In this document: in pieces, positions 14,874-43,040 of the stretch
Position numbering within the stretch: the first letter of the stretch is position 1
Layout: each line of letters starts with the position of its first letter
Assembly: GCA_011049545.1 (NCBI GenBank)
Contig: DRHQ01000161.1
Location: forward strand, 17,032-81,031
Length of the DNA stretch: 64,000 nucleotides
Direction of reading: 5' to 3'
From: Candidatus Aminicenantes bacterium
Lineage (GTDB): Bacteria; Acidobacteriota; Aminicenantia; Aminicenantales; Aminicenantaceae
Notes under the pieces: model-generated
What the model saw: the letters and a program-made list of their open reading frames with translations, nothing else
Database searches by the model: none
What the model was told of the DNA's origin: nothing
Translations under genes and position numbers: made by a program

Positions 14874-16667
14874 TCAGGATGCCAGCCTCAGTCTTTTCCA
14901 GGCTTTGGTCAAAACGTAAGTTGAGACGAGCGCTATTACAGTCAGAATATTTGCTAAGGTGTGTCTGCCATAAATCCAGTATCCTGTGGCGAAAAGCGCA
15001 CTATACACGGCAAAGCACCCCAGAACCATACACAATATGCCGGTAGGAACATCCCAAGCCTGTTTGGCTGCTTCAAGGAATTCGCCTTCCTTTTTTGCCT
15101 TATCGATTACTCTTTTCCAGCCGGGTCCACCGGGCTGGACCAAACGGTAGAAAGAGCGCAATGTCTTTGATTCCGTTGGTTTGGTCAGGAGAGTTACGGT
15201 AATCCAGCAGAATGTGGTGATACCAACACCCACAGCCAACCGGACAGGAGTGGAAATTTCTGGTAAACCTGTCCTCGGGTGTATCAACTGTAAATAGACA
15301 GCTACGACAAACGAAACAACCATGGCGGTAATCTCGCTGTACGGATTGATCCGCCACCAGAACCAGCGCAGGATAAAAAGCAATCCTGTCCCAGCTCCGA
15401 TTTGAAGCAAAATGTTAAAGGCCTGCAAGGCATTACTTAACACTAAGGCTATAAGACCGGCCAGTATCATCAGGCCGACAGTTGATAAACGCCCAACGAG
15501 AACCTGCCTTTTTTCGCTCGCTTCAGGATTTATGAAGCGTTTATAAAAATCGTTGACTATATAAGAAGAACCCCAGTTCAAATGCGTAGAGATTGTGGAC
15601 ATAAAAGCTGCGATCAAAGAGGCGACAACGAGCCCCAGAAGACCGTGAGGGAGAAACGTCAACATGGCAGGATAGGCAAGGTCATGACCTACCACGCTTG
15701 GATCAACATGCGGAAATGCAGCCCGCAGGGAATCCAGAGTGGGAAAGACCAGGAGGGAACATAAGGCCACGATTATCCAGGGCCAGGGACGGAGAGCATA
15801 ATGGGCGGCATTAAAAAGCAAGGTAGCACCCACTGCGTGTTTTTCTGACTTTGCAGACAGCATGCGCTGGGCAATGTAACCTCCACCTCCCGGTTCTGCT
15901 CCCGGATACCAAACGCTCCACCACTGCACTGCCAGAGGAAGAATGAAGATTGCTAACAATGCCTCCGTGTTAGAAAAGTCAGGAAGAAGATTCAATTTTG
16001 AAACTACATTCTCATTTGCTAATAATCCGCCTAATCCTCCAACCTGGGGCAGCCTGAGCGCAATGATAGCGGCACCGATCGCACCAACCATAGCAATTGC
16101 AAACTGGAAGAAGTCCGTGATTAAAACACCGCGCAATCCTCCGAGGGCGCTGTAGATAACCGTTACCAGCGAGGCAATTAAAAGGATTTGAATCGGCGTC
16201 AAATTAAACATGACACCGCCGATCTTTATGATTGCCAGGGAAACCGTGGCCATGATGAGAACGTTAAAAAACACGCCCAGGTACAGAGCCCGGAAACCCC
16301 GCAGGAAAGCAGCAGCTTTTCCGCTGTAGCGCAGTTCATAAAATTCGAGGTCGGTCAGAACGTTTGAGCGGCGCCAGAGTTTGGCATAGACAAAGACGGT
16401 CAGCATTCCGGTCAGGAGAAATGCCCACCAGACCCAGTTCCCGGCAACGCCATTCTGGCGGACTATATCTGTAACCAAATTCGGTGTGTCGCTGGAAAAA
16501 GTAGTGGCGACCATAGAGATCCCCAACAGCCACCAGGGCATATTTCTGCCTGAGAGAAAGAATTCTGAGGAACTCCTCCCCGCTTTTCTGGAAACAGCCA
16601 GTCCTATGGCCAGGGATAAGATAAAAAATCCGACTACAAATCCCCAGTCAATTGCCTGCAATATCAT
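14874..16667 (-). CDS. sodium:solute symporter (SSS) family transporter
   Basis: 597-aa polytopic membrane protein with SSS-like motifs. It lies 22 nt downstream of the M14 peptidase gene on the same strand. Confidence 0.85.
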   Translation of the reverse strand: MILQAIDWGFVVGFFILSLAIGLAVSRKAGRSSSEFFLSGRNMPWWLLGISMVATTFSSDTPNLVTDIVRQNGVAGNWVWWAFLLTGMLTVFVYAKLWRRSNVLTDLEFYELRYSGKAAAFLRGFRALYLGVFFNVLIMATVSLAIIKIGGVMFNLTPIQILLIASLVTVIYSALGGLRGVLITDFFQFAIAMVGAIGAAIIALRLPQVGGLGGLLANENVVSKLNLLPDFSNTEALLAIFILPLAVQWWSVWYPGAEPGGGGYIAQRMLSAKSEKHAVGATLLFNAAHYALRPWPWIIVALCSLLVFPTLDSLRAAFPHVDPSVVGHDLAYPAMLTFLPHGLLGLVVASLIAAFMSTISTHLNWGSSYIVNDFYKRFINPEASEKRQVLVGRLSTVGLMILAGLIALVLSNALQAFNILLQIGAGTGLLFILRWFWWRINPYSEITAMVVSFVVAVYLQLIHPRTGLPEISTPVRLAVGVGITTFCWITVTLLTKPTESKTLRSFYRLVQPGGPGWKRVIDKAKKEGEFLEAAKQAWDVPTGILCMVLGCFAVYSALFATGYWIYGRHTLANILTVIALVSTYVLTKAWKRLRLAS

Positions 16668-16689: not shown

Positions 16690-19224
16690 TTACAGCTCAC
16701 CAAGAGAAGAAGGACCATAGTGGATTGAATTGAAAAGTAACTTAAAGGTGCTGTGGGACTGGCCTCTATACAGAGCAGAAAAGCCTATAATGATAATCTT
16801 CCCGTCACCCAAAGGCACATCAACAAGGGCACTTTTGTTGTAAAAATAGTCTTCTCCATTAATCCAGCCGCTTAACAAGGGATTATGAGGAGGATAGGCG
16901 ACAATACTCTTTCCCTCCTTGGCAGCAAGAACAGGGCTTCTCCTGAAAAAAACAGCTCCTTCCCTTTCATAGCCGTAGGCAATCGGATGGGTCGTGTCGA
17001 TTAAAACCTTAAGCAGGGAGCCCGGCACAAAGAAGCTCTTCCTGTCCGCTTTCTCCACACTGTTCTCTATGGTGAGGGAAAATTGTTTCAAAGGAAAATC
17101 GGCAGCTGAGTTCAGCGTGATTAAAGTGCCTCCTTTTTGAACAAATTCTTTTATATTTTTTACTCCTATTTCACCTATGCCGCCAGAATATTCAGGAGGG
17201 ATGGATTCTTTAGGCGCACCGTTTATTATTGTGTTCGTCTTCAAATCCGGAAAAATGATGACATCAAAATTCTTATTGAGGTTTCCTTTTCTTATTTCTT
17301 TGTCGTGGATGCTCTTGTAGGGAAATTCATACTGCTCAAGAACCCATCTTGTCCATCCCTCATCCATCGAGGCATCCCAGCTCTTGTAAAGGCCGAGCCT
17401 GACAGAGTTTAGGGCGTATGCTTTTATCTCAGGTCTTGCCAATAATCCTTCGAAGTGAACATCCAGATCATTGACAATGGACTTCATGTCCTCAGCCAGA
17501 CCTTTTTTATTCCGGACGATCATCGTCCCCGAAGGATAGGTCTTTCCTTTCGCCGGAAAATCCTCCGAAGACCAGAAGGCGCTGTATCCTTTTTTCACCA
17601 GCCTGTTTAAAGCAACAATATCATCATTCGTTGCATGTCCCCAGGCGTATCCAAAGGCATTATCCACTGTTTCAATTTTGCCTTTTGGCCTGGAGAGTTT
17701 ATCAACCTGAACTGATTTAGCCTTAAAAGGATCTTTTATTTGAATGGCCTCGACACCCATTAGAAGAGGCAAAGTGTGAGCAACCACATCATAAGGACTT
17801 TTAAGCGGAGCACCTGGATATTCTCTTATTTCCGGATACACCTGATTTTCAAGCAGGGTTTTTGCGTATCCCCCATAGGGCTGGGCTAGAAAAACAATGT
17901 ATGTTCCTTCAGGATATTCATGGCCGTCAGCCATAATGGATTCGCTGGCTCTGTGAATTTCAACTCCTCCCATCTGCAAAACAGTCATCATCTTTATTGT
18001 CGTTGACAGGTCTTTCTGTTTGGCTGGAATGATGTAAGCGAAGGGGGGTTCTGTCCGGTTAACAGCTTTTTTATGTATTCGGTAGAAATTTCGGAGCCAG
18101 TTTTCTCTAAGTCTTGCTGCATTGGTTAAAGCAGCCTTGGCAGCAGAATAATTATAATCCACAAGGTCTCTCAGTGCCCATCTTCCCCCTTTCCAGGGCA
18201 TGGGCATTTTAACCGATGGCTCTTTTGCGTAGGCGGCAAGGTCCTCAAATTTAACCGTAACAGGAGTGGCCAGCTTAATGCTGGCTACCTCGGTTAGTAT
18301 CCTTATTCCTCCATGATAATGATGGTAAGCTCTGGCCGGTGTCCAGGCATCATACATGTTGCTGTGGATGACACCTGCTTTTCCTTCTGCTGTCATTTCA
18401 GAGGCGATGAAAGTCCCCATCATGGCCACTTGCTGCCTGAGTATCGGGTCGATGTTGGGCTCATAGGGATCAACGAAAGGAGGCACAAATATTCTTGCTC
18501 CCTTTCCTCCCATCTGATGCATATCCAGGATGACCTGGGGATGCCAGGCGTTGTGGACCTTAATCGTCAGGCGGGATTCGACCTGGGTAAACATATACCA
18601 GTCTCTGTTGTTATCGTGGCCTACATACTTATGATAAAGCCAGGGCATGCGCGATCCTTCATACTTTGTTCCAAGATTCTTTTTATACCAATCAACAACC
18701 ATTTGGGTCCCGTCCGGATTGTGCATGGGCACAAGAAGCAAAATCACGTTATCCAGAATTTCTTTTGTCTTTTTGTCATTTTTTGCGGCGAGGTCATAGG
18801 CAAGCTCCATGGACATCATGAACGCCCCGATCTTGGTGGCATGGAGGGAACAATTGATCATCACTACGGCTTTGCCCTGAGAGATGATTCCTTCCGCTTC
18901 TTTGTCTGTGATTTTCCGGGGGTCGGCAAGCAGCTGCTGATACTTGCGGTATTTTTCCAGGTTTTTATGGTTTTCTGCTGAGGTTATGAAGGCTACTATG
19001 AATGGATTTCCCATAGTGGTTTTACCGACTTCTTTTACAACTATTCTCTCGCTCGCCTTATCAAGTTTGGCGAAATAATCAAGAATCTGATGCATATCCG
19101 CAACTTTCCTGTCCGTTCCTATCTTAAATCCAAGAACTTCTTCAGGTTTAGGAATTTTTGCGAAAACTGCCTGACTTATAAAAAGAAATGACAGCCCTAT
19201 ACAGAATATTTTTGCCCTTCTCAT
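16690..19224 (-). CDS. M14-family metallocarboxypeptidase-like protein (long form)
   Basis: 844 aa. Signal peptide. M14 landmarks are HNPDG, GHDNNRDW and DMHQMG. The first zinc motif reads HATK instead of HxxE. Confidence 0.75.
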   Translation of the reverse strand: MRRAKIFCIGLSFLFISQAVFAKIPKPEEVLGFKIGTDRKVADMHQILDYFAKLDKASERIVVKEVGKTTMGNPFIVAFITSAENHKNLEKYRKYQQLLADPRKITDKEAEGIISQGKAVVMINCSLHATKIGAFMMSMELAYDLAAKNDKKTKEILDNVILLLVPMHNPDGTQMVVDWYKKNLGTKYEGSRMPWLYHKYVGHDNNRDWYMFTQVESRLTIKVHNAWHPQVILDMHQMGGKGARIFVPPFVDPYEPNIDPILRQQVAMMGTFIASEMTAEGKAGVIHSNMYDAWTPARAYHHYHGGIRILTEVASIKLATPVTVKFEDLAAYAKEPSVKMPMPWKGGRWALRDLVDYNYSAAKAALTNAARLRENWLRNFYRIHKKAVNRTEPPFAYIIPAKQKDLSTTIKMMTVLQMGGVEIHRASESIMADGHEYPEGTYIVFLAQPYGGYAKTLLENQVYPEIREYPGAPLKSPYDVVAHTLPLLMGVEAIQIKDPFKAKSVQVDKLSRPKGKIETVDNAFGYAWGHATNDDIVALNRLVKKGYSAFWSSEDFPAKGKTYPSGTMIVRNKKGLAEDMKSIVNDLDVHFEGLLARPEIKAYALNSVRLGLYKSWDASMDEGWTRWVLEQYEFPYKSIHDKEIRKGNLNKNFDVIIFPDLKTNTIINGAPKESIPPEYSGGIGEIGVKNIKEFVQKGGTLITLNSAADFPLKQFSLTIENSVEKADRKSFFVPGSLLKVLIDTTHPIAYGYEREGAVFFRRSPVLAAKEGKSIVAYPPHNPLLSGWINGEDYFYNKSALVDVPLGDGKIIIIGFSALYRGQSHSTFKLLFNSIHYGPSSLGEL

Positions 19225-19317
19225 ATTTTCCTCCTTCCGTATTTATTTATAGTCTATTGAAACTGGGAGTAAGTCTTGACTCTTGACATTCAGTCACGAT
19301 GGAAAGCTTATAACACA

Positions 19318-19465
19318 GGATTTGATAAATCAAACCTCTACACAAGAAAAACCAAACGCTTACATAAGAAAAATTAAAACCGTTCAGTTTATTTACATAA
19401 TCGAAAAGGTGGGCTTGATAAATCAAGCCCTTACAGAAGAAGAATCAAAATCCTACAGAACAATC
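19318..19465 (-). repeat. GTAG-hairpin (REP-like) element, one full and one degenerate copy
   Basis: Hairpin GGGCTTGA-TAAA-TCAAGCCC (19411-19430) followed by TTAC, preceded by the conserved AAAACCGTTCAGTTTATTTACATAATCGAAAAGGT. Same family as the arrays at 33.5 and 42.5 kb. Confidence 0.8.
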
Positions 19466-19475
19466 AAACATCTTG

Positions 19476-19497
19476 GGGGTCAGGTCTTGTTTTTTGC
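19476..19497 (+). repeat. solo copy of the 22-bp GGGGTCAGGTCTTGTTTTTTGC end sequence
   Basis: Exact match to the inverted ends that bracket the RAYT gene at 60.8-61.8 kb. No inverted partner is nearby. Confidence 0.8.
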
Positions 19498-19503
19498 TTA
19501 TTT

Positions 19504-20355
19504 TTAAAAAATGTAAGATAAACCCCAGGCAAGATGATGGGCAGGAAATCTCATCTGAATTGTGCCTTCTTCTCCATTATCAAAGCGCATCCCCCTCAAA
19601 TAGGACTGCGTGTATTTATACTCAAAATACATGCCGAAATGTTTTGAAAATTGAAAGCGCGCTCCCAAATTTGCTCCGAAATTGAAATTTGAAAAATCCG
19701 CTTGATAGGAAAAGGCCTTAGATTCCGCACTCCCGACCAATCTCAGCTGAGGATGAGGGATGCACGTTCCAGCACTGACTGCGAAATAGGGTTGCAGTTT
19801 TCCTGCAAGAATTTTTTCTGTCGGGAACAGCATAATCCTGTAAACCAAGGATAAACTCAGATGATTGACACCATGTGATACATTAAAAGAACTGATATAC
19901 TCATGAGCAGACTTCCATTCGTCCACTGGTCCATTTTCATCCACTCCCGTTGTATAAACCTGCTGATCTTCATCCGGTATAAAAACCTTTAAATGAACAA
20001 ACTCAAACCCTATTCCAAAATTCGGCTTCTTTTTAAAGAAGTGATAGAACCGAATCCCATAATACGGTTCGGTAAACGCACCGATGGCATCTCCGATCTT
20101 CCCCTGTAAAAGTGGAGACAAGAATGCATTGGGCAGGATTGAATCATCAGGATAGAATGAGTAACCTTTCATATACACATCGTGAAAAGTCAGATCAAAG
20201 TATCCGGGATAGTTTATCCTGATCCAGGCTCGAGTGGGAAAGGACATTCCTCGGTTGTATTCAACATAATTCAATGTCATCTTATGAACGTCTTTTTTGA
20301 CGGGCGATGGGAATAAAATGATGAATGTGCTGAGGAATGATAAAAGAATGTTCAT
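19504..20355 (-). CDS. outer-membrane beta-barrel protein (family uncertain)
   Basis: 283 aa. Signal peptide. Alternating beta-strand pattern. C-terminal ..WGLSYIF is typical of OMP termini. Confidence 0.6.
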   Translation of the reverse strand: MNILLSFLSTFIILFPSPVKKDVHKMTLNYVEYNRGMSFPTRAWIRINYPGYFDLTFHDVYMKGYSFYPDDSILPNAFLSPLLQGKIGDAIGAFTEPYYGIRFYHFFKKKPNFGIGFEFVHLKVFIPDEDQQVYTTGVDENGPVDEWKSAHEYISSFNVSHGVNHLSLSLVYRIMLFPTEKILAGKLQPYFAVSAGTCIPHPQLRLVGSAESKAFSYQADFSNFNFGANLGARFQFSKHFGMYFEYKYTQSYLRGMRFDNGEEGTIQMRFPAHHLAWGLSYIF

Positions 20356-20451
20356 CTATACCCTTAAAAGGAGTATCTCGTTTATAATCTAAATCAGGAA
20401 AATTGTAAATATCTTTTATTAAAAATAAGGTGATTCTTTCTAATAATCGTG

Positions 20452-20545
20452 GATTTATCATTGACAGGGTATATTTCTTCTATCTATTATTATCTAAAGA
20501 GAATGTCAGGAGGTGGAAATTGAATAAAAATGAGCCGAAATCAAT
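20452..20545 (+). repeat. 94-bp direct repeat copy 1 (promoter + RBS + first codons)
   Basis: 83/94 identical, without indels, to 23012-23105. It contains TTGACA (20461-20466), an 18-nt spacer, TATTAT (20485-20490), AGGAGG, and TTG AAT AAA AAT GA. Confidence 0.9.
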
Positions 20546-22253
20546 GCAGTCCCAAAAACCAATTTCCTATGTTTTTACCAGAACCAGAAGGTCAAGTTGT
20601 GGTGGATCGACGTCGGCTACCGCTCCGTCTCGACGCTCATTATCAAGATTATCCTGGGTATCTGGCCGTAGGGCAGGCCGGGGGCGTTCCGGCTTCGTTG
20701 CCGGAGCGCTGGTAGCGCTCCTGGCGATCACCGGCTGCTCGGGCAGACCATCATACGATCTGATCATCCGTGGTGGCCGGGTGCTGGACGGCAGCGGCAA
20801 TCCCTGGTATTACGCCGATATCGGCGTGCGGGGTGACCGTATCGCGGCTGTGGGCGATCTCTCCACGGCACGAGCCGCCCGGATCGTCGACGCCGGCGGG
20901 CTCTACGTGGCACCAGGATTCGTAGACGTGCACACCCACGTCGGTTCGGGTCTCGACACGCCCGACCGGAGTGCCGGGCAACCCCTGCTGGCCCAGGGCA
21001 TCACCACGGTCCTTGTGAACCCGGATGGCGGCGGCCCGGTTGATCTGGCGCAGCAGCGCCGGGACCTGCTGGAGGACGGCCTCGGGGTCAATGTCGGGAT
21101 GCAGATCGGGCACAACGTGATCCGATCGCGGGTGATCGGCAGCGAGGACCGCGATCCGACTCCCGCCGAACTGGATTCGATGAAACTGCTGGTGCGCGCC
21201 GGGATGGAAGAGGGGGCGTTCGGCCTTTCCAGCGCGCCATTCTACTCGCCCGGCAGCTTCTCCAAGACGGAAGAGATCGTGGCGCTGGCCGCGGTAGCCG
21301 CTGAGTTCGGTGGCACGCACCAGAGTCACGTGCGCGACGAATCCGACTATACGATCGGGCTCCTCGATGCGGTGGAAGAGGTGATCACAGTATCAAGGGA
21401 AACAGGCGTGCGCGGCATCGTCACCCACATCAAGGCGCTCGGCCCACATGTGTGGGGCTATTCGGAGGCTGTGGTGGAACGCATCAAGGCCGCCCGGGCC
21501 GAGGGACTCGAGATCTTCGCCGACCAGTACCCTTACGAGGCCTCCAGTACCGGCCTATCGGCGGCGCTTCTGCCTCGCTGGGCGCAGGCTGGCGGTCCGC
21601 GGGCACTGCGGGCCCGGCTCGACGACCCGGAGATCATGGCGCGCATCCGGAGTGCAATGGTAAAGAACCTGGACCGCCGGGGCGGGGCCGGCCGGATTCA
21701 GTTCCGCCGGTTCGAGCCCGACTCGACCATTGAGGGCAGAACTTTGCAGATGGTTGCCGATGACATGGGTTTGAGGGCGGTGGACGCGGCGGTGGCCCTG
21801 TTCAAGAAAGGCAGCCCCTCAATTGTCTCATTTAATATGAACGAGGACGACATCCGGACGTTCATGCGGCAGACCTGGACCATGACAGCCTCGGACGGAT
21901 CGCTGCCCCGCATGAACGTCGGCGTGCCGCACCCCCGGGCATATGGTACCTTTCCCCGGAAGATCCGGAAGTATGCAGTGGAGGAGGGCGTGATCGACCT
22001 GCCGTTCGCGATCCGCAGCATGACCAGCCTGCCGGTCACCGTATTCCGGATCCCCGACCGCGGATCGATCCGGCCCGGTGCATTTGCCGATCTGGTCGTT
22101 TTCGACCTGAATCGCCTGCGGGATACGGCTATCTATAGCGCCCCGCATCAACTGGCGGAAGGGATGGTGCATGTCCTCGTGAACGGCCGGTTCGCCATCC
22201 GGGATGGTGCGTTCACCGGCGATCTGGCCGGACGCGTTCTTTCCAGAAGGTAG
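20520..22253 (+). CDS. N-acyl-D-amino-acid deacylase (D-aminoacylase) family amidohydrolase, lipoprotein
   Basis: DLIIRGGRVLDGSG..ADIGVRGDRIAAVG..GFVDVHTH are amidohydrolase motifs. Lipobox LAITGC. Start placed at TTG 20520 (or ATG 20544) after the AGGAGG; the longer ORF from 20430 runs through the promoter. Very GC-rich. Confidence 0.8.
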   Translation: MNKNEPKSMQSQKPISYVFTRTRRSSCGGSTSATAPSRRSLSRLSWVSGRRAGRGRSGFVAGALVALLAITGCSGRPSYDLIIRGGRVLDGSGNPWYYADIGVRGDRIAAVGDLSTARAARIVDAGGLYVAPGFVDVHTHVGSGLDTPDRSAGQPLLAQGITTVLVNPDGGGPVDLAQQRRDLLEDGLGVNVGMQIGHNVIRSRVIGSEDRDPTPAELDSMKLLVRAGMEEGAFGLSSAPFYSPGSFSKTEEIVALAAVAAEFGGTHQSHVRDESDYTIGLLDAVEEVITVSRETGVRGIVTHIKALGPHVWGYSEAVVERIKAARAEGLEIFADQYPYEASSTGLSAALLPRWAQAGGPRALRARLDDPEIMARIRSAMVKNLDRRGGAGRIQFRRFEPDSTIEGRTLQMVADDMGLRAVDAAVALFKKGSPSIVSFNMNEDDIRTFMRQTWTMTASDGSLPRMNVGVPHPRAYGTFPRKIRKYAVEEGVIDLPFAIRSMTSLPVTVFRIPDRGSIRPGAFADLVVFDLNRLRDTAIYSAPHQLAEGMVHVLVNGRFAIRDGAFTGDLAGRVLSRR

Positions 22254-22354
22254 CACAGAACAAAACGCTACGCTCGATTGCCGCCAGTAAACTTTGTCGT
22301 TAGGCAGCGGCGGCGCTTGCAGATTTGGGTTTCAGAAAAGACTTGGAGGAGAAC

Positions 22355-22846
22355 ATGGTATTCTCGGCTTCTAGATCGGAAAGAATATCAAGGACGAGCG
22401 TCATAACTTTGAATGCTCCGTTGAAAAGAGTGTTTCCCTTATTCGGTCCTATAAGAGAAAAAGAATGGGCCGCTGGGTGGGAGCCTCAAGTACTTTACCT
22501 GACCACCGACTTTGTGGAAGAGCATATGGTCTTCAAGACGCAGTCCAATCTTGGACATGAACCTGATTTTACGTGGACAGTATCGAAATACCGCCCTGAC
22601 CAAGCGTTCATTGAGTATACAGTTTTCGCGCCGGAAAGGCTGTGGTGGATAACGATCCAATGTCGTGAAGGCATTGGGGAAGAAACAACCAAGGCGGAGA
22701 TTACCTACACGTACACAGGATTAACAAAGAAAGGCAACGCAACCAATGTAAAAGCTCTGGAGACGATGTTTCGTCGAGATCTGAAGGACTGGGAAGAGGC
22801 TATCAATCACTATCTAGAGACGGGAGAGCGACTGGAACCCGGCTAG
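22355..22846 (+). CDS. hypothetical protein, possibly SRPBCC-fold
   Basis: ORF with GGAGGAG SD before ATG 22355. About 163 aa. The fold assignment is only an impression from the sequence pattern. Confidence 0.4.
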   Translation: MVFSASRSERISRTSVITLNAPLKRVFPLFGPIREKEWAAGWEPQVLYLTTDFVEEHMVFKTQSNLGHEPDFTWTVSKYRPDQAFIEYTVFAPERLWWITIQCREGIGEETTKAEITYTYTGLTKKGNATNVKALETMFRRDLKDWEEAINHYLETGERLEPG

Positions 22847-22861
22847 AGACATTTATCGCTT

Positions 22862-22995
22862 GGGGTCAGGTCTTGTTTTTTGCTTTTTGTCACAATATTT
22901 CTTAGCTAATGCTATCAATTTCAGTTCAATGCCCTCTTTTCCCGTCTTATTACTGCATGTCAAAAGTTGAAAAGCAAAAAACAAGACTTGATCCC
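22862..22995 (+). mobile_element. 134-bp MITE/REPIN-like element with 22-bp terminal inverted repeats
   Basis: Left end GGGGTCAGGTCTTGTTTTTTGC, right end GCAAAAAACAAGACTTGATCCC. About 88% identical over its full length to the inverted element at 28238-28371. Confidence 0.8.
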
Positions 22996-23011
22996 ATTTA
23001 CTGCATCCGTA

Positions 23012-23105
23012 GATTTTTCATTGACAGGGTATGTTTCCTCTATCTATTATTATCTACAGAGCAGGTCAGAAGGTAGAAATTGAATAAAAATGAACTGAAC
23101 TCAAT
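23012..23105 (+). repeat. 94-bp direct repeat copy 2 (native promoter/5' end of the 23080 gene)
   Basis: Partner of 20452-20545. TTGACA 23021-23026 and TATTAT 23045-23050. Confidence 0.9.
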
Positions 23106-24252
23106 CACTGGGGGGATAAAATTGCTTTTTGCGGGATGCATGATTCTTCTCTTGCAGAAAACAACCTTGCCACAAACCTTCGAGCTCAAGGGTCTTGTTT
23201 CTGGATGGACAACCGTCAATGCTGCCAGCATCACCGAACCACAGCTTGGCCTGCGTTACATTCCCGAATTTTCAATCGAAAAATCCCTTTCACAAAACTA
23301 TTCCCTTTACTTTGACCTTTCCCTGAATTCCTATGGAACGGCTCATGTACATTCCCTGGATGAGGTCCAAACGGATGGAGATATTAAACTTTACAGGATG
23401 TGGGGCCGATTTTCATCCTCCCAGTTCGAGGCCAGGCTGGGGCTTCAGAAGATAAATTTCGGTTCAGCAACCCTGTTGAGGCCTTTGATGTGGTTTGACC
23501 GCATCGATCCTCGTGACCCCCTGCAGCTTACAGACGGCGTCTACGGCCTTCTGCTGAGGTACTATTTCCTGAATAATGCCAACATCTGGGTCTGGGGGCT
23601 TTACGGCAACGACGACCTGAGAGGATGGGAATTCCTACCTTCTGAAGCTGAATCCGTTGAATTCGGAGGACGTTTCCAGTACCCAATCGGGAAGGGGGAA
23701 TTGGCCTTCACCTATCATCACCGGCAAACCGATCCGAGCCGGGGCCCTTTCGCTCTGGATGTTGCGGGTGATTCCCAGATTCCTGAGAACCGTTATGCGC
23801 TGGACGGCAAATGGGATATTGGAATCGGTTTCTGGTTCGAGGGGATGCTTATTCATCAGCGCAGCGAATGGCTGCCCTTCCCCTGGCAAAGAGCACTTAA
23901 TATTGGCCTTGATTATACGTTCAGCCTGGGGAATGGCTTGAATCTAATCGGGGAGTATTTTATTTTCGAAAGCAGCCAAGACGCCTTCGGATCGGGAGAG
24001 GGCATCAAATTTTCAGCGCTATCCCTGAGTTACCCTCTGAGCCTTCTGGACAACCTGAGCTGCATTTTCTATTATGATTTGGAAAACAGGGATCTCTACA
24101 GCTTCGTGAACTGGAAGCGAACCTATGATCAATGGATTATCAATGTCATCGGCTTCTGGAACCCGGAACACTTTCAGATCTACCAGAACTTACCGGAGAA
24201 TAACCTGTTTGCGGGAAAGGGGATTCAGATCATGGTCATTTTTAACTACTGA
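23080..24252 (+). CDS. putative outer-membrane (porin-like) protein, first gene of the ABC/LolA-like cluster
   Basis: 390 aa with a TTG start. Hydrophobic N-terminus, beta-rich and aromatic-rich sequence, C-terminal aromatic residue (..VIFNY). Confidence 0.5.
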   Translation: MNKNELNSITGGIKLLFAGCMILLLQKTTLPQTFELKGLVSGWTTVNAASITEPQLGLRYIPEFSIEKSLSQNYSLYFDLSLNSYGTAHVHSLDEVQTDGDIKLYRMWGRFSSSQFEARLGLQKINFGSATLLRPLMWFDRIDPRDPLQLTDGVYGLLLRYYFLNNANIWVWGLYGNDDLRGWEFLPSEAESVEFGGRFQYPIGKGELAFTYHHRQTDPSRGPFALDVAGDSQIPENRYALDGKWDIGIGFWFEGMLIHQRSEWLPFPWQRALNIGLDYTFSLGNGLNLIGEYFIFESSQDAFGSGEGIKFSALSLSYPLSLLDNLSCIFYYDLENRDLYSFVNWKRTYDQWIINVIGFWNPEHFQIYQNLPENNLFAGKGIQIMVIFNY

Positions 24253-24299: not shown

Positions 24300-25019
24300 A
24301 TGGAAAACTCGTTTTTAATTAAAACAAAAGATCTTGTTAAAACCTATCCGGTGGGTCACACAACGCTTTTCGCCCTCAATCGAGTGAGCCTCGGTTTTAA
24401 GCCGGGAGAGTTTGCCGGCCTTGTGGGTCCCAGCGGTTCGGGAAAAACAACATTTCTCAACATCATTGGTTCTCTGGATTCGCCTACGGAAGGGAGTGCG
24501 GTTGTGATGGGAAAGAATGTCGAAGACCTCTCGCATAAACAGGCAGCCGAGCTGCGCAATCGGAGCATCGGGTTTATTTTTCAAACCTTTAACCTGCTTC
24601 CTGTCTATACTGTTTATGAAAACGTCGAGTTTCCTTTGCTTCTCCTTAATCTGCCTCCGAAAGAACGCAAAGAAAAGGTCATGAAAGCTCTGGAGTGGGT
24701 CAGACTGGCGGACAGAGCCAAATCCAAGCCCGCCCAGTTATCCGGAGGAGAAAGCCAGAGGGTGGCCGTGGCCCGGGCTATTGTCAAGAAGCCATCCATC
24801 ATCCTTGCCGATGAGCCCACAGCCAACCTGGATGCGGAGAACTCATTCAACATTCTGGATACGATGGAAGAGCTGAACCACGAGCTGAACACAACTTTTA
24901 TTTTCGCCACTCATGACGAAAAGGTCATCAAGTACCTGCGGCGGAAGATCACTCTGGTTGACGGGAAAGTGACCAAGGATGAGGTCTATGAACAGAAAAA
25001 CAGCAAAGGAGATATCTGA
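24300..25019 (+). CDS. ABC transporter ATP-binding protein (LolD/MacB-like)
   Basis: Walker A GPSGSGKTT, signature LSGGESQRVAVARA, Walker B ILADEPT. Confidence 0.95.
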   Translation: MENSFLIKTKDLVKTYPVGHTTLFALNRVSLGFKPGEFAGLVGPSGSGKTTFLNIIGSLDSPTEGSAVVMGKNVEDLSHKQAAELRNRSIGFIFQTFNLLPVYTVYENVEFPLLLLNLPPKERKEKVMKALEWVRLADRAKSKPAQLSGGESQRVAVARAIVKKPSIILADEPTANLDAENSFNILDTMEELNHELNTTFIFATHDEKVIKYLRRKITLVDGKVTKDEVYEQKNSKGDI

Positions 25020-26191
25020 TGATTATCCCAAAATTGGCACTCCGGAATTTGCTGGGAGCGGGACTCAGGACCTGGTTGAATGTGGTGGTGCTGTCCCTTT
25101 CTTTCGTGCTCATCATCTGGCTTCAGGGCTTGTATATAGGAATGGGCGATCAAATCAAAGAAGCCCAAATCGATGTTGACTACGGGGGGGGCCAGTACTG
25201 GCATGAAAGTTATGATCCCTATGACCCTCTCACACTGGAGGATGCCCATGGAGCCGTTCCCGATCCCATACAGAATAAAATCGACAAGGGTGAAGCAACG
25301 CCCATTCTTATAGCTCAAGCGACAATTTATCCTGAAGGCCGTCTGCAGGTTATTCTCCTTAAAGGGATCGATCCTGCACAGACGGTGGTTAATTTCCCCT
25401 CACAATTTCTGGTCCAGGAAAATGGCGAAATTCCTGCTCTGATTGGAACCCGGATGGCAAAAAGCGCGGGATTAAAAATTGGGGATAAGGTCATCGTGCG
25501 CTGGCGGGATGCGCAGGGGACCTTTGATGCCAGGGACGTCTACATCGCGCAGATCATGAAAACCATTGTCCCTGCGGTCGATCAGAGCCAGATATGGATC
25601 CCTCTTGAGACAATGAGAGAATTGATGGGAATGCAAAACGAGGCGAGTCTTGTGGTTATGGCCAAGGATATCGAAGAATTGCCTGTTGTCTCAGGATGGA
25701 ATTTTAAGTCATTAAAATTCCTGCTTGCAGACGTTGAATACCTGATTAAGACAAAAAAAACCGGTGGTTCGATCATATACATGTTCTTGCTCTTGCTCGC
25801 CATGCTGGCTATCTTCAACACACAGGTTTTATCCATTTTCCGTCGCAAAAAAGAAATGGGCTCTATGATGGCCATGGGCTTTACCAGGGGCAAAATTATT
25901 CAGCTATTCACCCTGGAAGGAGCGTTCCATTCCGTTTTGGCAGGAATCGTTGCCGCTATTTATGGGATTCCGTTTCTGGTCTGGTTTGCTAAGAAAGGCT
26001 GGGCCATGCCAGAGGGTTACGACGACTTCGGTATTGCGCTGGGAGAAAAGCTTTTTCCCATTTACACTGCAGGTTTGGTGTTTGGAACCGTGATGCTGAT
26101 CCTGATTGTCACCACAATCGTCAGTTTCCTGCCCACGCGTAAAATCGCTAAACTCAAACCTACCGATGCGTTGAGAGGAAGGTTGTCATGA
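25019..26191 (+). CDS. ABC transporter permease, FtsX-like
   Basis: 390 aa. N-terminal TM helix, large extracytoplasmic domain, three C-terminal TM helices. Start overlaps the upstream stop. Confidence 0.85.
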   Translation: MIIPKLALRNLLGAGLRTWLNVVVLSLSFVLIIWLQGLYIGMGDQIKEAQIDVDYGGGQYWHESYDPYDPLTLEDAHGAVPDPIQNKIDKGEATPILIAQATIYPEGRLQVILLKGIDPAQTVVNFPSQFLVQENGEIPALIGTRMAKSAGLKIGDKVIVRWRDAQGTFDARDVYIAQIMKTIVPAVDQSQIWIPLETMRELMGMQNEASLVVMAKDIEELPVVSGWNFKSLKFLLADVEYLIKTKKTGGSIIYMFLLLLAMLAIFNTQVLSIFRRKKEMGSMMAMGFTRGKIIQLFTLEGAFHSVLAGIVAAIYGIPFLVWFAKKGWAMPEGYDDFGIALGEKLFPIYTAGLVFGTVMLILIVTTIVSFLPTRKIAKLKPTDALRGRLS

Positions 26192-27462
26192 TCAAATTCA
26201 TATTCAAAGGAATAATCCGCGACCGGTCCCGCTTTTTATTTCCTGTTTTGACCATAACCTTCGGAGTGGCACTTTCAGTCCTGGGCTACTGCTATTTTAG
26301 CGGAGTTATGACCAGCTGGATTCAGACCAGTGCTAAATTTGAATCCGGGCATTTAAAGATCATGTCCCGGGCTTATGCTGAAATCGCCGACCAGGTGCCA
26401 AATGATCTGGCCTTCATCGGCGCCAAAAATCTTACTGCAGATCTAAAAAAGGATTTCCCCGAACTCATTTTCGTCAACAGAATCCGGTTTGGAGGGCTTT
26501 TTGATGTCCCCGATGAAAACGGAGAGACAAAGGCTCAAGGTCCTGTGATGGGACTTGCCGTAGACCTTCTTTCCGAAGAGAGCCCGGAGAGGGAAATGTT
26601 AAATCTTGAAAACGCGGTGGTGCGAGGGCGTCTGCCTGAAAAACATGGAGAAATGCTGATAAGCGATGAATTCGCCCGCCGCTTGAATGTTCAACTTGGA
26701 CAGTCCGCGACTCTCATCGGATCGACGATGTATGGAAATATGGCGACTGCAAACTTCACGGTCGTCGGAACTCTTCGCTTCGGTATTGCAGCCATGGACC
26801 GCGGGACCATGGTGGCAGACATAGCCGATATCCAGGCGGCTCTGGATATGGAAGATGCTGCAGGGGAGATCTTGGTTTTCTTCAATGACTATGTCTACCG
26901 GGAAGAAGAGGCCGAAATCATCGCCGAAACGTTCAATGCAAAATATTCCGATGAAAACGATGAGTTTTCACCAGTGATGAATTCTCTCAGCAGCCAGGGA
27001 GGGATGGCAGACACCATGGGCATGGTGGACTCCATGATGGGTATAATGATTTTCTCTTTTATCGCCATTATGTCTATTGTTCTGTGGAACGCTGGATTGG
27101 TGGGCAGCCTCAGACGCTATGGAGAGATCGGTGTGCGCCTGGCTATGGGAGAAAGCAAAGGACATCTTTACCGGTCTATGATCACAGAATCCTTGATGAT
27201 CGGGGCTGTCGGTTCAATCATTGGGACTGCCTTAGGCCTGGCATTCTCCTATTATCTTCAGGTCAAAGGAATAAATATTGGAAGCATGATGCAGAATGCC
27301 TCCATGATGATAAATGACGTTATAAGGGCGAAAGTCACCCCCTTCAGTTTTGTGATCGGGTTTATCCCCGGCCTTATAGCCACATTTCTCGGGACATCCA
27401 TCTCCGGCATTGGCATTTATAAACGACAGACATCCCAATTGATTAAGGAGTTGGAAGTATGA
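26188..27462 (+). CDS. ABC transporter permease, FtsX-like (second copy)
   Basis: 424 aa with the same architecture as the first permease. 4-nt overlap with the upstream gene. Confidence 0.85.
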   Translation: MIKFIFKGIIRDRSRFLFPVLTITFGVALSVLGYCYFSGVMTSWIQTSAKFESGHLKIMSRAYAEIADQVPNDLAFIGAKNLTADLKKDFPELIFVNRIRFGGLFDVPDENGETKAQGPVMGLAVDLLSEESPEREMLNLENAVVRGRLPEKHGEMLISDEFARRLNVQLGQSATLIGSTMYGNMATANFTVVGTLRFGIAAMDRGTMVADIADIQAALDMEDAAGEILVFFNDYVYREEEAEIIAETFNAKYSDENDEFSPVMNSLSSQGGMADTMGMVDSMMGIMIFSFIAIMSIVLWNAGLVGSLRRYGEIGVRLAMGESKGHLYRSMITESLMIGAVGSIIGTALGLAFSYYLQVKGINIGSMMQNASMMINDVIRAKVTPFSFVIGFIPGLIATFLGTSISGIGIYKRQTSQLIKELEV

Positions 27463-28205
27463 AAAGAATCATATGCTATATAAGTTTTGTTTGCCTGTTG
27501 ACAGCTGCTGTCACGGCTCAAGAACCACCATCTGGAGAAGACATCCTCAAACAAGTGGATGCCAATATCGGTTCGGATAACAAGATATCTGTTGCCGAGA
27601 TGACCATCCATGGACGTCGGGGAAGCCGGACGGTCAAGTCAAAATCATGGCTTCGAGGACAAGACGAGTCTTTCACCGAATACCTTGCCCCAGCCCGCGA
27701 AAAAGGAACCAAGATGCTTAAACTCGGCGATCAGTTGTGGATATACTTGCCCTCGACGAATCGAACGATAAAAATCTCAGGACACATGATGCGACAGTCT
27801 GTTATGGGATCGGATCTTTCCTACGAAGATATGATGGAAGATCAGGATTTACAAAAGATATATGACGCTCAAGTTGCTGCCGAAGAGGTAATCCTTGAAC
27901 GCCCCTGCTGGGTGCTAGAGCTGACTTCCAAGGGAGGCAATATTGCCTACCATTCAAGGAAAATCTGGGTGGACAAGGAAAGGTTCGTTTCTCTAAGGGA
28001 GGATCGCTTTGCCAGGAGCGGGAAACTTCTCAAGACCTTTGAAGCGAAGGAGGTCAGCCGGATCCAAAACCGTTGGGTTCCGACCCGCATGGTCTTCAAA
28101 GATGTACTTAAAAGTGGGAAGGGCACGGAGTTTATCCTCGAATCCATCGAGTTTAACGCCGACATCCCGGAGCATGTTTTTACTAAAGCATCACTGCGGA
28201 AATAG
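27459..28205 (+). CDS. LolA-like outer membrane lipoprotein-sorting protein
   Basis: 248 aa. Signal peptide. Sequence pattern of the LolA-like family that commonly follows FtsX-type ABC systems. 4-nt overlap with the permease gene. Confidence 0.65.
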   Translation: MKRIICYISFVCLLTAAVTAQEPPSGEDILKQVDANIGSDNKISVAEMTIHGRRGSRTVKSKSWLRGQDESFTEYLAPAREKGTKMLKLGDQLWIYLPSTNRTIKISGHMMRQSVMGSDLSYEDMMEDQDLQKIYDAQVAAEEVILERPCWVLELTSKGGNIAYHSRKIWVDKERFVSLREDRFARSGKLLKTFEAKEVSRIQNRWVPTRMVFKDVLKSGKGTEFILESIEFNADIPEHVFTKASLRK

Positions 28206-28237: not shown

Positions 28238-28371
28238 GGGGTCAGGTCTTGTTTTTTGCATCTCAACTTTTGAAATATAGTAATAAGACGAGAAAAGAGG
28301 GCATCGAAAAGAAATTGCTAGCATTCGCTAAATAATATTATGACAAAAAGCAAAAAACAAGACCTGACCCC
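28238..28371 (-). mobile_element. 134-bp MITE/REPIN-like element (inverted copy of 22862-22995)
   Basis: Perfect 22-bp TIRs at 28238-28259 and 28350-28371. The core aligns without indels to the other copy. It ends 2 nt from the ADH stop codon. Confidence 0.85.
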
Positions 28372-33537: not shown

Positions 33538-33865
33538 TGTAGGGGCTTGATTCTTATGTATGTATTCTTCTGTAGGGGCTTGATTCATCAAGCCCACCTG
33601 TCGATTCCGTATCGATTGATTAATGAAATCCAAATTGATTGTATGGATTTGATTCTTCTGTAGGGGCTTGATTCATCAAGCCCACCTGTTTGAATATATC
33701 AATAAACTGAACGGTTTTAATTTTTCTTATATATACATTTGGTTTTTCTTCTGTATGGATTCTCCTGTAGGGGCTTGATTCATCAAGCCCACCTGTTTGA
33801 ATATATCAATAAACTGAACGGTTCTGATCCTTCTCATGTATGGATTCTTCTGTAGGGGTTTGAGA
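33538..33865 (+). repeat. tandem array of GTAG-hairpin (REP-like) elements
   Basis: Three full copies with GTAG followed by GGGCTTGA-TTCA-TCAAGCCC (hairpins 33576-33595, 33664-33683, 33771-33790), plus two partial copies. Period 85-107 bp. Confidence 0.9.
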
Positions 33866-42534: not shown

Positions 42535-43040
42535 CTGTAGGAACATTATTTATCAAGCCCCTACAGAAGAAGAATCCCGCCAGATGAATCAAAACCTTTC
42601 AGTTTATTTATATATTTGAAAAGGTGGGTTTGATGAATCAAACCCCTACAAGAATCAAGCCCCTACATAAAAATCCCAACCTAAGAAGAATCAAAACCTT
42701 TCAGTTTATTGATATATTTGAAAAGGCGGGTTTGATGAATCAAACCCCTACAGAAGAAAAACCCCATCAATAGAAGAAACATCCGCACAGATAAATCAAA
42801 TCCAGACATAAGAAAAACCAAAACCTTTCAGTTTATTTATATATTTACAAAGGTGGGTTTGATGAATCAAACCCCTACAGAAGAATCCCAACAGAAGAAG
42901 GATCCGGACAGATGAATCCGTATATAAGAAGAACCAAATACAGACATAAGAAAAATAAAAAACCTTTCAGTTTATTGATATATTCAAAAAGGTGGGTTTG
43001 ATGAATCAAACCCCTACAGAAGAATATGTACATAAGAATA
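42535..43040 (-). repeat. tandem array of GTAG-hairpin (REP-like) elements, opposite orientation
   Basis: Four full copies with hairpin GGGTTTGA-TGAA-TCAAACCC followed by CTAC (42626-42649, 42728-42751, 42855-42878, 42994-43017). Two partial copies near 42553 and 42655. Confidence 0.9.

Follow-up and report, generated by a model that had tools for sequence, protein, structure and literature searches.

The direct repeat that frames a D-aminoacylase-type gene in this 64,000-nt stretch of Candidatus Aminicenantes DNA (the window) is probably the decayed right (oriIS) end of an IS91-family rolling-circle insertion sequence, and as a whole this explains the locus best. The identity of the repeat, the foreign origin of the enclosed gene, the reality of its junction with the repeat and the replacement of the native start of the next gene are the firm parts of this explanation. 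The direct copies bracket a 2.56-kb unit situated between an SSF transporter gene and a gene encoding 390 aa. The features of the locus were as follows.

19504-20355, - strand: divergent OMP beta-barrel gene, 283 aa (ORF; Pfam OMP_b-brl, E = 2e-7), the left flank of copy 1
20429-20574, + strand: probable IS91-family oriIS-end fragment, copy 1, 5'-truncated, without transposase, 3' end intact
Signals of copy 1, + strand: -35 TTGACA at 20461-20466, -10 TATTAT at 20485-20490, AGGAGGTGG at 20508-20516 and TTG at 20520
3' end of copy 1, + strand: ...CCAATTTCCTAT at 20570, then the conserved flanking GTTT at 20571-20574
20520-22253, + strand: N-acyl-D-amino-acid deacylase-type amidohydrolase gene, 577 aa (Pfam Amidohydro_3; gene caller start 20520)
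20575-22348, no strand: deacylase-specific DNA, ~1.77 kb (GC profile, tetranucleotide outlier, limit of homology to locus L130)
22355-22846, + strand: small SRPBCC-type gene, 163 aa (PF10604 in its homologues; host-like composition)
22862-22995, no strand: MITE, 134 bp, terminal inverted repeats of ~22-27 nt (GGGGTCAGGTCTTGTTTTTTGC), of a family resident in the genome
23008-23105, + strand: probable oriIS-end fragment, copy 2, truncated on both sides; -35 at 23021-23026, -10 at 23045-23050, TTG at 23080
23080-24252, + strand: resident 390-aa gene, first gene of its operon, no Pfam match; first 8 codons (MNKNELNS) IS-derived
24300-28205, + strand: downstream operon with an ABC ATPase, two FtsX-type permeases and a LolA-like protein (Pfam; synteny)

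When 20452-20545 was aligned with 23012-23105, 83 of 94 positions were identical with 0 indels. The binomial chance of at least 83 matches in 94 at p = 0.3 is ~6e-32. The repeat finder widened the pair to 20448-20545 and 23008-23105 (98 nt, 88%), and a 36-nt core pattern of the repeat had only two sites in the window, both in the repeat copies, where 0 were expected. As determined by the promoter scan, both copies contain TTGACA-N18-TATTAT (20461-20490 and 23021-23050), which agrees with the sigma-70 consensus at 11 of 12 positions, together with a Shine-Dalgarno-like GGAGGTGG/AAGGTAG and TTG AAT AAA AAT GA. The Amidohydro_3 ORF, the 163-aa ORF and the 134-bp MITE are enclosed by the two repeats. 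An earlier reading of the DNA made from its letters (the sequence-only reading) had described the same repeat with its promoter-like site, Shine-Dalgarno site and TTG start, and the same three elements between the copies, and we confirmed all of these. The true extent of copy 1 was found to be larger, from 20429 on the left to 20570 on the right (20574 with the GTTT).

Copies of this module were identified 62 times in ~38 distinct contexts, comprising the window, L002, L082-84 and 51 metagenome loci. The family has a sharp 3' boundary at ...CCAATTTCCTAT followed by GTTT; GTTT was present in 32 of the 37 distinct flanks and T at position 2 of the flanking tetranucleotide in 35 of 37, and the GTTT may be target or element sequence. 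The constant 3' end was combined with heterogeneous 5' ends over the ~38 contexts, all copies examined being either 5'-truncated or at contig ends. Many copies ran upstream into a transposase C-terminus, and the longer ones were unbroken from this C-terminus (..AAEERAEYL and stop) via ~215 nt to ..CCTAT. Transposase fragments adjoined module copies in many loci. In L116/L125 the ORF immediately upstream of the module matched Zn_Tnp_IS91 (PF14319, E = 3e-20) and Y2_Tnp (PF04986, E = 1e-10), and copy 1 shared 92% identity along 146 nt with the L125 copy, which is downstream of this ORF. Full-length relatives of 421-422 aa, named 'IS91 family transposase [Candidatus Aminicenantes]' by NCBI, were followed by a homologous tip ~210 nt past the stop of the transposase gene (L137, L138 and L139). 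Both domains, PF14319 and PF04986, were found in all 120 transposase relatives among the matches listed, some of which are named IS91 family transposase, and the HPHIH and RYYG motifs were seen in the relative P0122. The oriIS in the related loci lay downstream of the gene for the transposase, oriented alike and at the far right end. Neither a transposase gene nor a fragment of one was detected within the window, and thus the IS identity of the window copies rests on these related loci, among which no intact autonomous copy of exactly this IS subfamily was recovered. The closest full-length transposase among the matches listed was 80% identical, with an oriIS ~70% identical.

The tip of the module, ATTTCCTAT, resembles the ISCR1 tip ACTTCCTAT(ACCC), and ATTTCCTAT / ACTTCCTAT is common to the module and the ISCR1 oriIS GTGGTTTATACTTCCTATACCC (PMC13023784), including the motif TTCCTAT. 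An 8-bp subterminal inverted repeat (GGAAATTG/CAATTTCC) was present and folded no better than shuffled sequences (z = +0.5 to -0.7). The IS91 family is characterised by distinct ends, an oriIS downstream of tnpA and a target tetranucleotide with T at position 2, the flanking tetranucleotide of the characterised members being CTTG, GTTC or GTCC (PMC13181058). The elements described here share with IS91, IS801 and IS1294 a Zn_Tnp_IS91 + Y2_Tnp transposase of ~422 aa, presumably dissimilar ends, a specific tetranucleotide at oriIS with T at position 2, and a constant oriIS end with a variable distal end that is reminiscent of one-ended transposition products (PMC13181058). They differ in the flanking tetranucleotide, which is GTTT here (AAAT/ATTT in relatives) instead of CTTG, GTTC or GTCC, in the weak subterminal palindrome and in having no orf121. 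Furthermore, most copies are shorter than the IS (5'-truncated), not longer as in classical one-ended transposition. We propose that an IS91-family element proliferated in this marine-sediment Aminicenantes lineage. In its oriIS region, ~215 nt from transposase stop to tip, a sigma-70-like promoter faces outward, together with a ribosome-binding-like site (GGTGG/GGAGG) and a TTG. The transposase portions of both window copies would have been lost.

An outward promoter of an insertion sequence is a known bacterial means of switching on acquired genes. Here the IS end, with its promoter, Shine-Dalgarno-like site and TTG, probably forms translational fusions with the deacylase and with the 390-aa gene and drives both. 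Promoter activity and use of the TTG as a start are predicted; the arrangement is much like the POUT promoters of ISCR1. The first downstream gene was co-oriented with the module in 26 of 33 contexts (79%, p = 0.0007); for ISCR1, whose POUT promoters have been experimentally proven, 84% of the downstream genes are co-oriented (PMC6218425). The -35 TTGAC was kept in divergent relatives. All deacylase-linked copies showed a change from AGAAGG to AGGAGG, a better Shine-Dalgarno site, and the same base change was found elsewhere only in L087, in another sequence context (AGGAAATGG). The 577-aa fused frame was intact in all five other deacylase-bearing assemblies for which the length of the gene was read (L082, L083, L084, L141 and L142), with 92-100% identity. 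No further in-frame start precedes the lipobox, so the deacylase would be read from the IS-derived TTG or from an ATG 8 codons further on. The GGTGGAAATT motif was kept also where divergent relatives lack the TTG; it may therefore serve for recognition by the transposase and resemble a ribosome-binding site only incidentally.

The 577-aa ORF matched Pfam Amidohydro_3 with E = 6e-24 (PF07969 spans residues 151-588). It shares the Amidohydro_3 fold with, and aligned at full length to, the D-aminoacylase of Alcaligenes faecalis DA1 (PDB 1M7J, E = 7e-70); N-acyl-D-glutamate deacylase (3GIP) followed with E = 1e-63. Close homologues are named D-aminoacylase or N-acyl-D-amino-acid deacylase by their sources, and the NCBIfam score was subfamily-level only, below cutoff. 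The H-x-H (DVHTH), HxRDE, the next His and the Asp of SDG all aligned to 1M7J; the identities of the metal ligands are assumed here. An Asp (NPDG) was found where 1M7J has the Cys of GNCG, presumably a zinc ligand, and NPDG was also present in all 7 high-GC homologues whose displayed alignment reaches that position. N-terminal alignment with homologues showed that residues 1-19 are IS-derived and that ~36 more are encoded by GC-rich sequence that precedes the native signal peptide and lipobox (..LLAITGC). Compared with 1M7J, the window protein has a lipoprotein-type signal peptide and a non-native N-terminal extension of 57 residues.

On composition and homology the deacylase is a xenolog, evidently acquired horizontally from a high-GC (Gemmatimonadota/Latescibacteria-like) lineage. 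In composition it deviates most strongly of all genes in the window: its GC content was 0.62-0.64 and its GC3 0.727 (z = 3.8 against the 38 other ORFs of at least 200 aa), and its tetranucleotide distance of 0.677 was the largest in the window (median 0.263). GC was 0.58-0.70 across 20600-22300 in 200-nt windows compared with ~0.44 for the whole window; the GC-rich sequence starts right at the IS boundary and the foreign composition extends up to ~22300. The protein was 62-72% identical to proteins source-named Gemmatimonadota or Latescibacteria and ~35% to AT-rich paralogs, which together with the outlying composition indicates a foreign gene. The closest non-fused homologue was encoded on a contig of 67.5% GC. 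The sequence-only reading had considered the gene GC-rich and foreign and had suggested a homology search for the donor lineage; the first point held, and the search led to these high-GC proteins.

The 163-aa ORF had no Pfam match of its own. Its homologues, some of them source-named Aminicenantia or KSB1, carry the SRPBCC-type domain PF10604. The gene has a GC content of 0.47, and strain L130 has it but not the deacylase. The element of 134 bp at 22862-22995 is a MITE, being short, non-coding, multi-copy and polymorphic for insertion: its 27-nt terminal inverted repeats were 93% identical, its termini recurred 10 times in the window (expected 0), full copies were also located at 28238-28371 and 59228-59452, and it was absent from this site in L130. 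No target-site duplication was evident around the MITE copies. An integron gene-cassette array was also considered and rejected: no integrase-family Pfam match was found among the called genes within 10 kb on either side or the scanned ORFs, and the repeated units were IS ends 5' of genes and MITEs. The terminal inverted repeats of the MITE do not match what we take to be the attC R''/R' core.

Whether the inter-repeat segment is present or absent depends on the strain, and the locus is a strain-variable plasticity zone. The right limit of the deacylase segment was placed at window position 22349, where homology to the deacylase-free L130 resumes. Relatives of the 390-aa gene were found in 80 genome loci, and the synteny downstream of it was kept in the 7 related loci examined (L002, L003, L005, L006, L008, L010 and L011); the 24300-28205 operon is probably co-transcribed with it. 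The native leader of the 390-aa gene, TTTCTTTTTTTACGGAAT...GGAGGA..GTG, was present in L003, L004 and L005, and the sister locus L002 keeps this leader behind a shorter IS fragment. In the window lineage the native leader, Shine-Dalgarno site and start of the gene have been replaced by IS sequence. Copy 2 was without the last 25 nt of the element and the flanking GTTT, hence without the nick site, and was fused in frame to the 390-aa gene where ...CTCAAT meets CACTGG. The same fusion junction was detected in L098, L106, L108, L122, L123 and L130. The sequence-only reading had pointed to sister genomes with an empty site. L130 is free of the deacylase, and L003, L004 and L005 are free of the IS.

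We propose that copy 2 was the older insertion and went in ahead of the resident 390-aa/ABC-transporter operon. The IS tip, together with the native leader and first few codons of the 390-aa gene, would later have been deleted, and the operon would now begin on IS-derived signals. Copy 1, with its IS tip intact, abuts at GTTT a GC-rich stretch of ~110 bp that precedes the native signal peptide of the deacylase. The canonical rolling-circle model does not provide for mobilisation of DNA on the right of oriIS, so the IS mechanism alone leaves the arrival of the deacylase unexplained. As to how the unit came to be here, we infer two candidate routes, insertion of the IS beside an already acquired gene or homologous recombination between IS copies.

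Recombination, with the IS copies serving as homology for entry of an oriIS-deacylase unit, is possible, if somewhat doubtful. Examples would be a single crossover between circular or incoming DNA with one IS copy on it and the resident IS copy before the 390-aa gene, or strain exchange. Loci with at least two module copies (the window, L002, L098, L116, L122 and L129) always had them in direct orientation. The hot spot carries different oriIS-headed genes in different strains, namely a polysaccharide deacetylase and a 187-aa ORF in L002 and a CAAX protease in L098, and L083 has the oriIS-deacylase-SRPBCC unit before another downstream gene. This route would be analogous to the presumed rescue of circles with ISCR1, which recombine into the 3'-CS of class 1 integrons; a circle-plus-recombination model for ISCR1 has been described (PMC13023784). 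However, copies ~88% identical over ~100 bp would be a poor substrate, and both the SRPBCC gene and the MITE, which separate the deacylase from copy 2, look resident and not imported. The single crossover with a circular molecule suggested in the sequence-only reading is retained as a route only with IS copies as the homology, and not with the host promoter.

It is very improbable that the repeat is instead a dispersed regulatory cassette, a promoter with a leader peptide (MNKNEPNSMQSQKPISYV) acting by uORF or attenuation control, that lies near transposase relics by chance. A short ORF from the TTG was present in nearly all copies, that of L002 ends in an ATGA overlap with the downstream start, and downstream genes were mostly co-oriented. 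However, it was the nucleotide sequence that was conserved, up to a fixed position that is no stop codon; the peptide runs on for 11-92 residues into arbitrary sequence or fuses to genes, and in divergent relatives the tip and the -35 are kept whereas TTG and reading frame are not. No Rfam family matched the region, and the longer copies were contiguous with the transposase C-terminus.

We give still less credence to the proposal that the repeats represent the promoter and start of the 23080 gene itself, duplicated by integration of a circle or by duplication-mediated capture. The geometry had suggested this, with direct repeats around a foreign gene and with promoter, Shine-Dalgarno site and identical first codons in both of them. 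The proposal fails because the sequence is a dispersed IS-end family that occurs in ~38 unrelated contexts, downstream of IS91-type transposase genes, and the native leader and start of the 390-aa gene are different and are retained in L002-L005. Copy 1 also continues 25 nt further, to the family-wide boundary missing from copy 2, and the two copies diverge as much as random family members (identity 0.878 compared with a family median of 0.888).

A metagenome assembly chimera, with the contig of a high-GC organism joined through the repeat, had been named as the main alternative; the multi-copy repeat, the short contigs that break inside the module (L083 and L084 begin within it) and the abrupt jump in composition would suit it, but it is rejected as hardly credible because the oriIS/deacylase junction recurs in five assemblies from other accessions, with the OMP flank on its left in L082 (ERZ25747235), L141 (GCA_004196295.1) and L142 (SRR7787913) and also in L083 (GCA_044344285.1) and L084 (SRR20755637), at 93-100% identity (L082, L083, L084, L122/L141 and L142) with real sequence divergence, because joining through the repeat would still need an AT-rich IS end beside a GC-rich gene in some molecule, and because a MITE and an SRPBCC gene, both resident, follow beyond the deacylase.

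The decayed IS91-type end that we favour can be compared with other elements that carry outward promoters. ISEcp1 and IS1999 likewise have a complete outward -35/-10 pair near the tip, upstream of an acquired gene; their transposition chemistry is DDE, in contrast to HUH here. Such promoter-bearing elements are usually intact, whereas only the promoter-bearing tip survives at this locus. ISCR1 has in common with the present family an HUH rolling-circle-type transposase, an oriIS region of ~200-230 bp that lies downstream of the gene for the transposase and has an outward promoter (here a predicted one), a variable region past oriIS with mostly co-oriented genes, and repeated copies that bracket acquired genes. 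Unlike ISCR1, which is found in clinical Gammaproteobacteria, the family resides in uncultured marine-sediment Aminicenantes; the adjoining genes are catabolic or envelope genes and not antibiotic resistance genes, and a class 1 integron 3'-CS partner is missing. In the window the copies survive as short relics that lack a transposase, their promoter is a prediction, and the IS end is predicted to give also a ribosome-binding site and start codon, resulting in translational fusions to two genes.

A broader reading, which we consider rather unlikely, is that in this lineage the oriIS tip is a portable expression module of promoter, ribosome-binding site and start codon that builds tandem arrays resembling those of integrons, in which each gene has its own promoter and is often foreign. 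Assembly would proceed by rolling-circle activity, by recombination between direct copies or by both, with a hot spot upstream of the 390-aa/ABC-transporter operon. If this were true, it would represent an ISCR-type gene-capture platform outside antibiotic resistance, in a deep-sediment candidate phylum.

The segments at 20452-20545 and 23012-23105 (copy 1 and copy 2) were identical at 83 of 94 positions and free of indels, exactly as the sequence-only reading had claimed, and a repeat finder reported the same pair as 98 nt at 88% identity. Both copies contained TTGACA-N18-TATTAT, matching 11 of 12 consensus positions in a promoter scan, together with a purine-rich Shine-Dalgarno-like site and TTG AAT AAA AAT GA. 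The genes and elements at the site are as follows.

14874-16667: SSF transporter gene
16690-19224: M14 carboxypeptidase gene
19504-20355 (-): beta-barrel gene left of copy 1 (OMP flank)
20520-22253: deacylase ORF starting with TTG, 577 aa, same start in the public gene call
22355-22846: small ORF, 163 aa, SRPBCC-type by homologues
22862-22995: 134-bp MITE with 27-nt terminal inverted repeats
23080-24252: 390-aa gene, heading a conserved ABC-transporter operon

The contents proposed for the interval between the repeats were likewise found. The deacylase is an Amidohydro_3 protein that aligned over its full length with D-aminoacylase 1M7J (E = 7e-70). The small ORF had many homologues with PF10604, an SRPBCC-type domain; its own 163-aa sequence gave no Pfam or NCBIfam match, and an exact-protein look-up of a 173-aa version returned nothing, the called gene being the 163-aa version. 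The 390-aa protein also had zero Pfam and zero NCBIfam matches. When 19000-24000 was searched against Rfam in E-value mode, only a chance miRNA match over the MITE was obtained, and riboswitch or leader RNA was absent.

The window derives from a 74-kb MEGAHIT contig of a marine-sediment metagenome (ENA ERZ940452, run SRR1555744). Conserved genes to the right of the cassette showed 95% DNA identity to the Candidatus Aminicenantes MAG with the sister locus L002 (SOIV01000318.1) and 72-77% identity to other Aminicenantes MAGs, indicating that the host, with a GC content of about 44-45%, is an Aminicenantes bacterium.

The sister locus L002 was decisive for recognising what the repeat represents. 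It carries a module of about 145 bp three times in direct orientation, each ahead of a different gene (a polysaccharide deacetylase, a 187-aa ORF and a homologue of the 390-aa gene). A degenerate module pattern was scanned once over JGI metagenome contigs and yielded 51 further loci; with the copies in the window and the other loci, the total was 62. In anchored alignments the 5' ends of the copies were heterogeneous and the 3' boundary was sharp, with ...CCCAAAAACCAATTTCCTAT followed by GTTT in 32 of 37 distinct flanks and then by unrelated sequence. Conserved sequence extended at least 170 nt upstream in many copies and is the 3' end of a gene for a transposase. In loci L116 and L125 the ORF preceding the module matched Zn_Tnp_IS91 and Y2_Tnp, and pieces of the same transposase adjoined module copies at many loci. 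Its database relatives were 421-422 aa long with both domains, some being named 'IS91 family transposase [Candidatus Aminicenantes bacterium]'. A homologous tip was located about 210 nt past the stop codon of full-length relatives in three contigs (..AACCAATTTCTTAT followed by ATTT, ..GGAAATTCTTAT followed by AAAT and ..GGAAATCCCTAT followed by AAAT).

These features match what has been published for IS91-family and ISCR elements, which have oriIS downstream of their transposase gene, dissimilar ends and, next to oriIS, a target tetranucleotide whose second position is T (PMC13181058). The tip of ISCR1 is GTGGTTTATACTTCCTATACCC (PMC13023784), and A-TTCCTAT is common to it and the tip of the present family. 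No transposase sequence was found within the window, which holds only two oriIS relics:

20429-20570, plus GTTT to 20574: copy 1, tip intact, 5' end truncated
23008-23105: copy 2, truncated on both sides, last 25 nt of the element missing

A search for an intact autonomous copy of the exact IS subfamily gave fragments only, the best full-length relative being 80% identical. The tip DNA folded into no structure more stable than shuffled sequences.

In three more distant Aminicenantes (L003, L004 and L005) the locus of the 390-aa gene is without the IS, and the native leader reads TTTCTTTTTTTACGGAAT..TGA...GGAGGATAAGTGAAA. L002 keeps the native leader, Shine-Dalgarno site and start (MTRTGGIKLL...) right behind a shorter IS fragment. 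In contrast, the window and the related loci L098, L106, L108, L122, L123 and L130 have the IS joined to the gene at about its codon 4-5, at ...GAACTCAAT followed by CACTGG. The host start has therefore been replaced by IS-derived sequence, and MNKNELNS of the 390-aa protein is predicted to be an IS-derived N-terminus. The single crossover between a circular molecule and the 5' region of this gene, which the sequence-only reading had proposed for the geometry, is plausible if the IS copies were the homology, but not with a host promoter in that role. The accompanying proposal that the repeats duplicate a host promoter and gene start fits the geometry but is contradicted, because they belong to a multicopy IS end, the native leader is different, the family-wide tip is reached by copy 1 and not by copy 2, and the two copies are as similar to each other (identity 0.878) as random family pairs (median 0.888), each being 0.91-0.93 identical to the family consensus.

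An assembly chimera joined through the repeat had been named as the main alternative. However, the junction of OMP flank, oriIS and deacylase recurred in other assemblies, namely in L082 (ENA ERZ25747235) at 98% identity, in L141, which is the same contig as L122 (NCBI GCA_004196295.1), and in L142 (Logan SRR7787913), and the oriIS/deacylase/SRPBCC stretch recurred in L083 (GCA_044344285.1, 95%) and L084 (SRR20755637, 93%). These copies differ by real substitutions, and the 577-aa fused frame was kept in every junction assembly with the deacylase gene that was examined (all but L122, the contig of L141). L130 independently has the SRPBCC gene next to the IS-fused 390-aa gene. In practical terms these recurrences exclude a chimera. 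No empty site for copy 1, where the OMP flank would lack the module, was found, all contigs with the exact OMP protein carrying module and deacylase; deacylase-free variants of the larger zone exist in L108, L130, L002 and L098. A leader-peptide reading was rejected because the conserved part breaks off at a set nucleotide position rather than at a stop codon, and an integron reading because integrase was absent among the genes examined.

The compositional contrast described for the deacylase gene was evident in both checks: its GC was 0.58-0.70, with a GC3 of 0.727 (z = 3.8), and the 1.7-kb segment 20401-22100 stood furthest from the remainder of the window in tetranucleotide composition (distance 0.677, median 0.263). 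After four near-identical fused versions, the closest homologue was the protein P0004, 72% identical and encoded on a 67.5% GC contig. The next approximately 100 homologues were 58-68% identical, their names, where sources give any, being Latescibacteria, Gemmatimonadota, Longimicrobiales or 'bacterium HR33'. The deacylase is a xenolog, acquired from a high-GC lineage resembling Gemmatimonadota/Latescibacteria.

In these homologues a short signal peptide begins 20-30 residues ahead of the conserved YDLIIRGGR core. The window deacylase has 57 extra N-terminal residues, 19 from the IS and then about 36 read from GC-rich DNA, and its native lipobox-type signal (..GALVALLAITGC) comes after this extension. 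Since no in-frame ATG, GTG or TTG was found between ATG 20544 and the lipobox, expression of the exported deacylase would depend on IS-derived initiation signals. The NPDG of the deacylase aligned to GNCG of 1M7J, with Asp in place of Cys where 1M7J has a metal ligand. NPDG was also found in the seven high-GC homologues whose displayed alignment spans that position, and in this family the metal site or the substrate may differ. AT-rich Amidohydro_3 (D-aminoacylase-like) genes were observed behind the IS tip in L091 (ORF from +69) and L097 (ORF from +291), their proteins being only about 35% identical to the window deacylase; counting the window, this enzyme family occurs in 3 of about 38 IS-tip contexts.

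The 232-bp oriIS region of ISCR1 contains two experimentally verified outward promoters, and 84% of the genes adjacent to ISCR1 are co-oriented (PMC6218425). In the present family the first gene past the tip was co-oriented in 26 of 33 distinct contexts (binomial p = 0.0007), and the -35 TTGAC was conserved even in IS relatives with diverged surroundings. The adjoining genes include M14 and S15 peptidases, amidohydrolases, an APH-type kinase, LemA, phosphofructokinase and polysaccharide deacetylase. By analogy with ISCR1 the oriIS tip would act as an outward promoter, and we infer both this activity and the use of its start codon. The GGTGGAAATT motif is conserved also in IS relatives without the TTG, and it may be a recognition sequence of the transposase whose likeness to a ribosome-binding site has been exapted. 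In all deacylase-linked tips (20508-20516 and the equivalents in L082, L083, L084 and L122) AGAAGG is changed to AGGAGG, which places a canonical Shine-Dalgarno site 4 nt before the TTG. Elsewhere the same base change was found only in L087, in a different context (AGGAAATGG), and other family copies retain AGAAGG or another variant (e.g. AGAGGG in L105/L136). This pattern is consistent with selection for translation from the IS-derived start, which it suggests but does not prove.

The route of the cassette to the site is the least certain step of the explanation. Strand transfer in the rolling-circle model starts at oriIS and proceeds back across the transposase gene, leaving DNA to the right of oriIS behind (PMC13181058). 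Because that DNA is not carried along, the adjacency of oriIS and deacylase would be best explained by insertion of the IS, or a short derivative, at GTTT about 110 bp upstream of the native start of the deacylase, the transposase part being lost after that insertion. The stretch from the SSF transporter gene to the 390-aa gene was strain-variable (16690-23007 in comparison with L108, L130, L098 and L002) and forms a plasticity zone. L108 has only about 0.87 kb between the two genes. The zone of L130 holds a 65% GC S9/DPP-IV peptidase, an IS91-type transposase fragment, a sulfatase, a CAAX protease and the SRPBCC gene and lacks the deacylase, and the zones of L098 and L002 hold other IS-headed genes. 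L083 has the oriIS-deacylase-SRPBCC unit as in the window, then a different gene. This variation may plausibly be driven by recombination among the numerous direct IS relics and MITEs.

The 134-bp element at 22862-22995 is a resident MITE, its termini occurring 10 times in the window against 0 expected. Further family copies with termini GGGGTCAGGTCTTGTTTTTTGC were located at 28238-28371 (134 bp, opposite orientation) and 59228-59452 (225 bp, different internal sequence), along with several solo or tandem ends (solo termini at 19476-19497, 60790-60860 and 61827-61848); no target-site duplication was evident at the family copies in the window. MITEs of this family lie directly upstream of each IS tip in L002. 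Another short dispersed or tandem repeat family (units e.g. TTGATAAATCAAGCCCTTACAGAAGAA) was found between the M14 and OMP genes at 19298-19502 and at two other window sites, 33645-33846 and 42587-43023, and directly after the SSF gene in L108 and L130. The segment 4251-6800 ranked second in the window for tetranucleotide deviation (0.447), with GC raised to 0.50-0.53, and may be another compositionally atypical segment. An M28 peptidase (29514-31022) and an alanine racemase gene (about 32341-33534) are also encoded nearby; with the deacylase and the M14 peptidase, they hint that peptides and necromass containing D-amino acids may be used.

Among known systems, ISCR1 with its POUT promoters comes closest, within the broader IS91 family. 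The present case differs in that the host is of another phylum, the adjacent genes are not resistance genes, the tetranucleotide is GTTT, short 5'-truncated relics prevail and predicted IS-derived translation initiation is fused to two genes. In a literature search, no paper was found linking Aminicenantes with IS91 or with D-aminoacylase. The mechanism is not new, and the locus is a well-documented case in nature of probable IS-mediated activation of a gene of foreign composition in an uncultured lineage. To our knowledge, studies of ISCR-like gene activation have dealt almost exclusively with clinical resistance genes. Here an uncultured sediment phylum offers a clean example from nature of a horizontally acquired gene of very different base composition plugged into host expression signals, in which the IS91/ISCR-type end would supply the promoter and, apparently, the ribosome-binding site and start codon as well. 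For annotation, a 'duplicated promoter' beside an island can be an unannotated IS relic, and called N-termini may derive from an IS. The case suggests ISCR-like activation as a more general route of niche adaptation.
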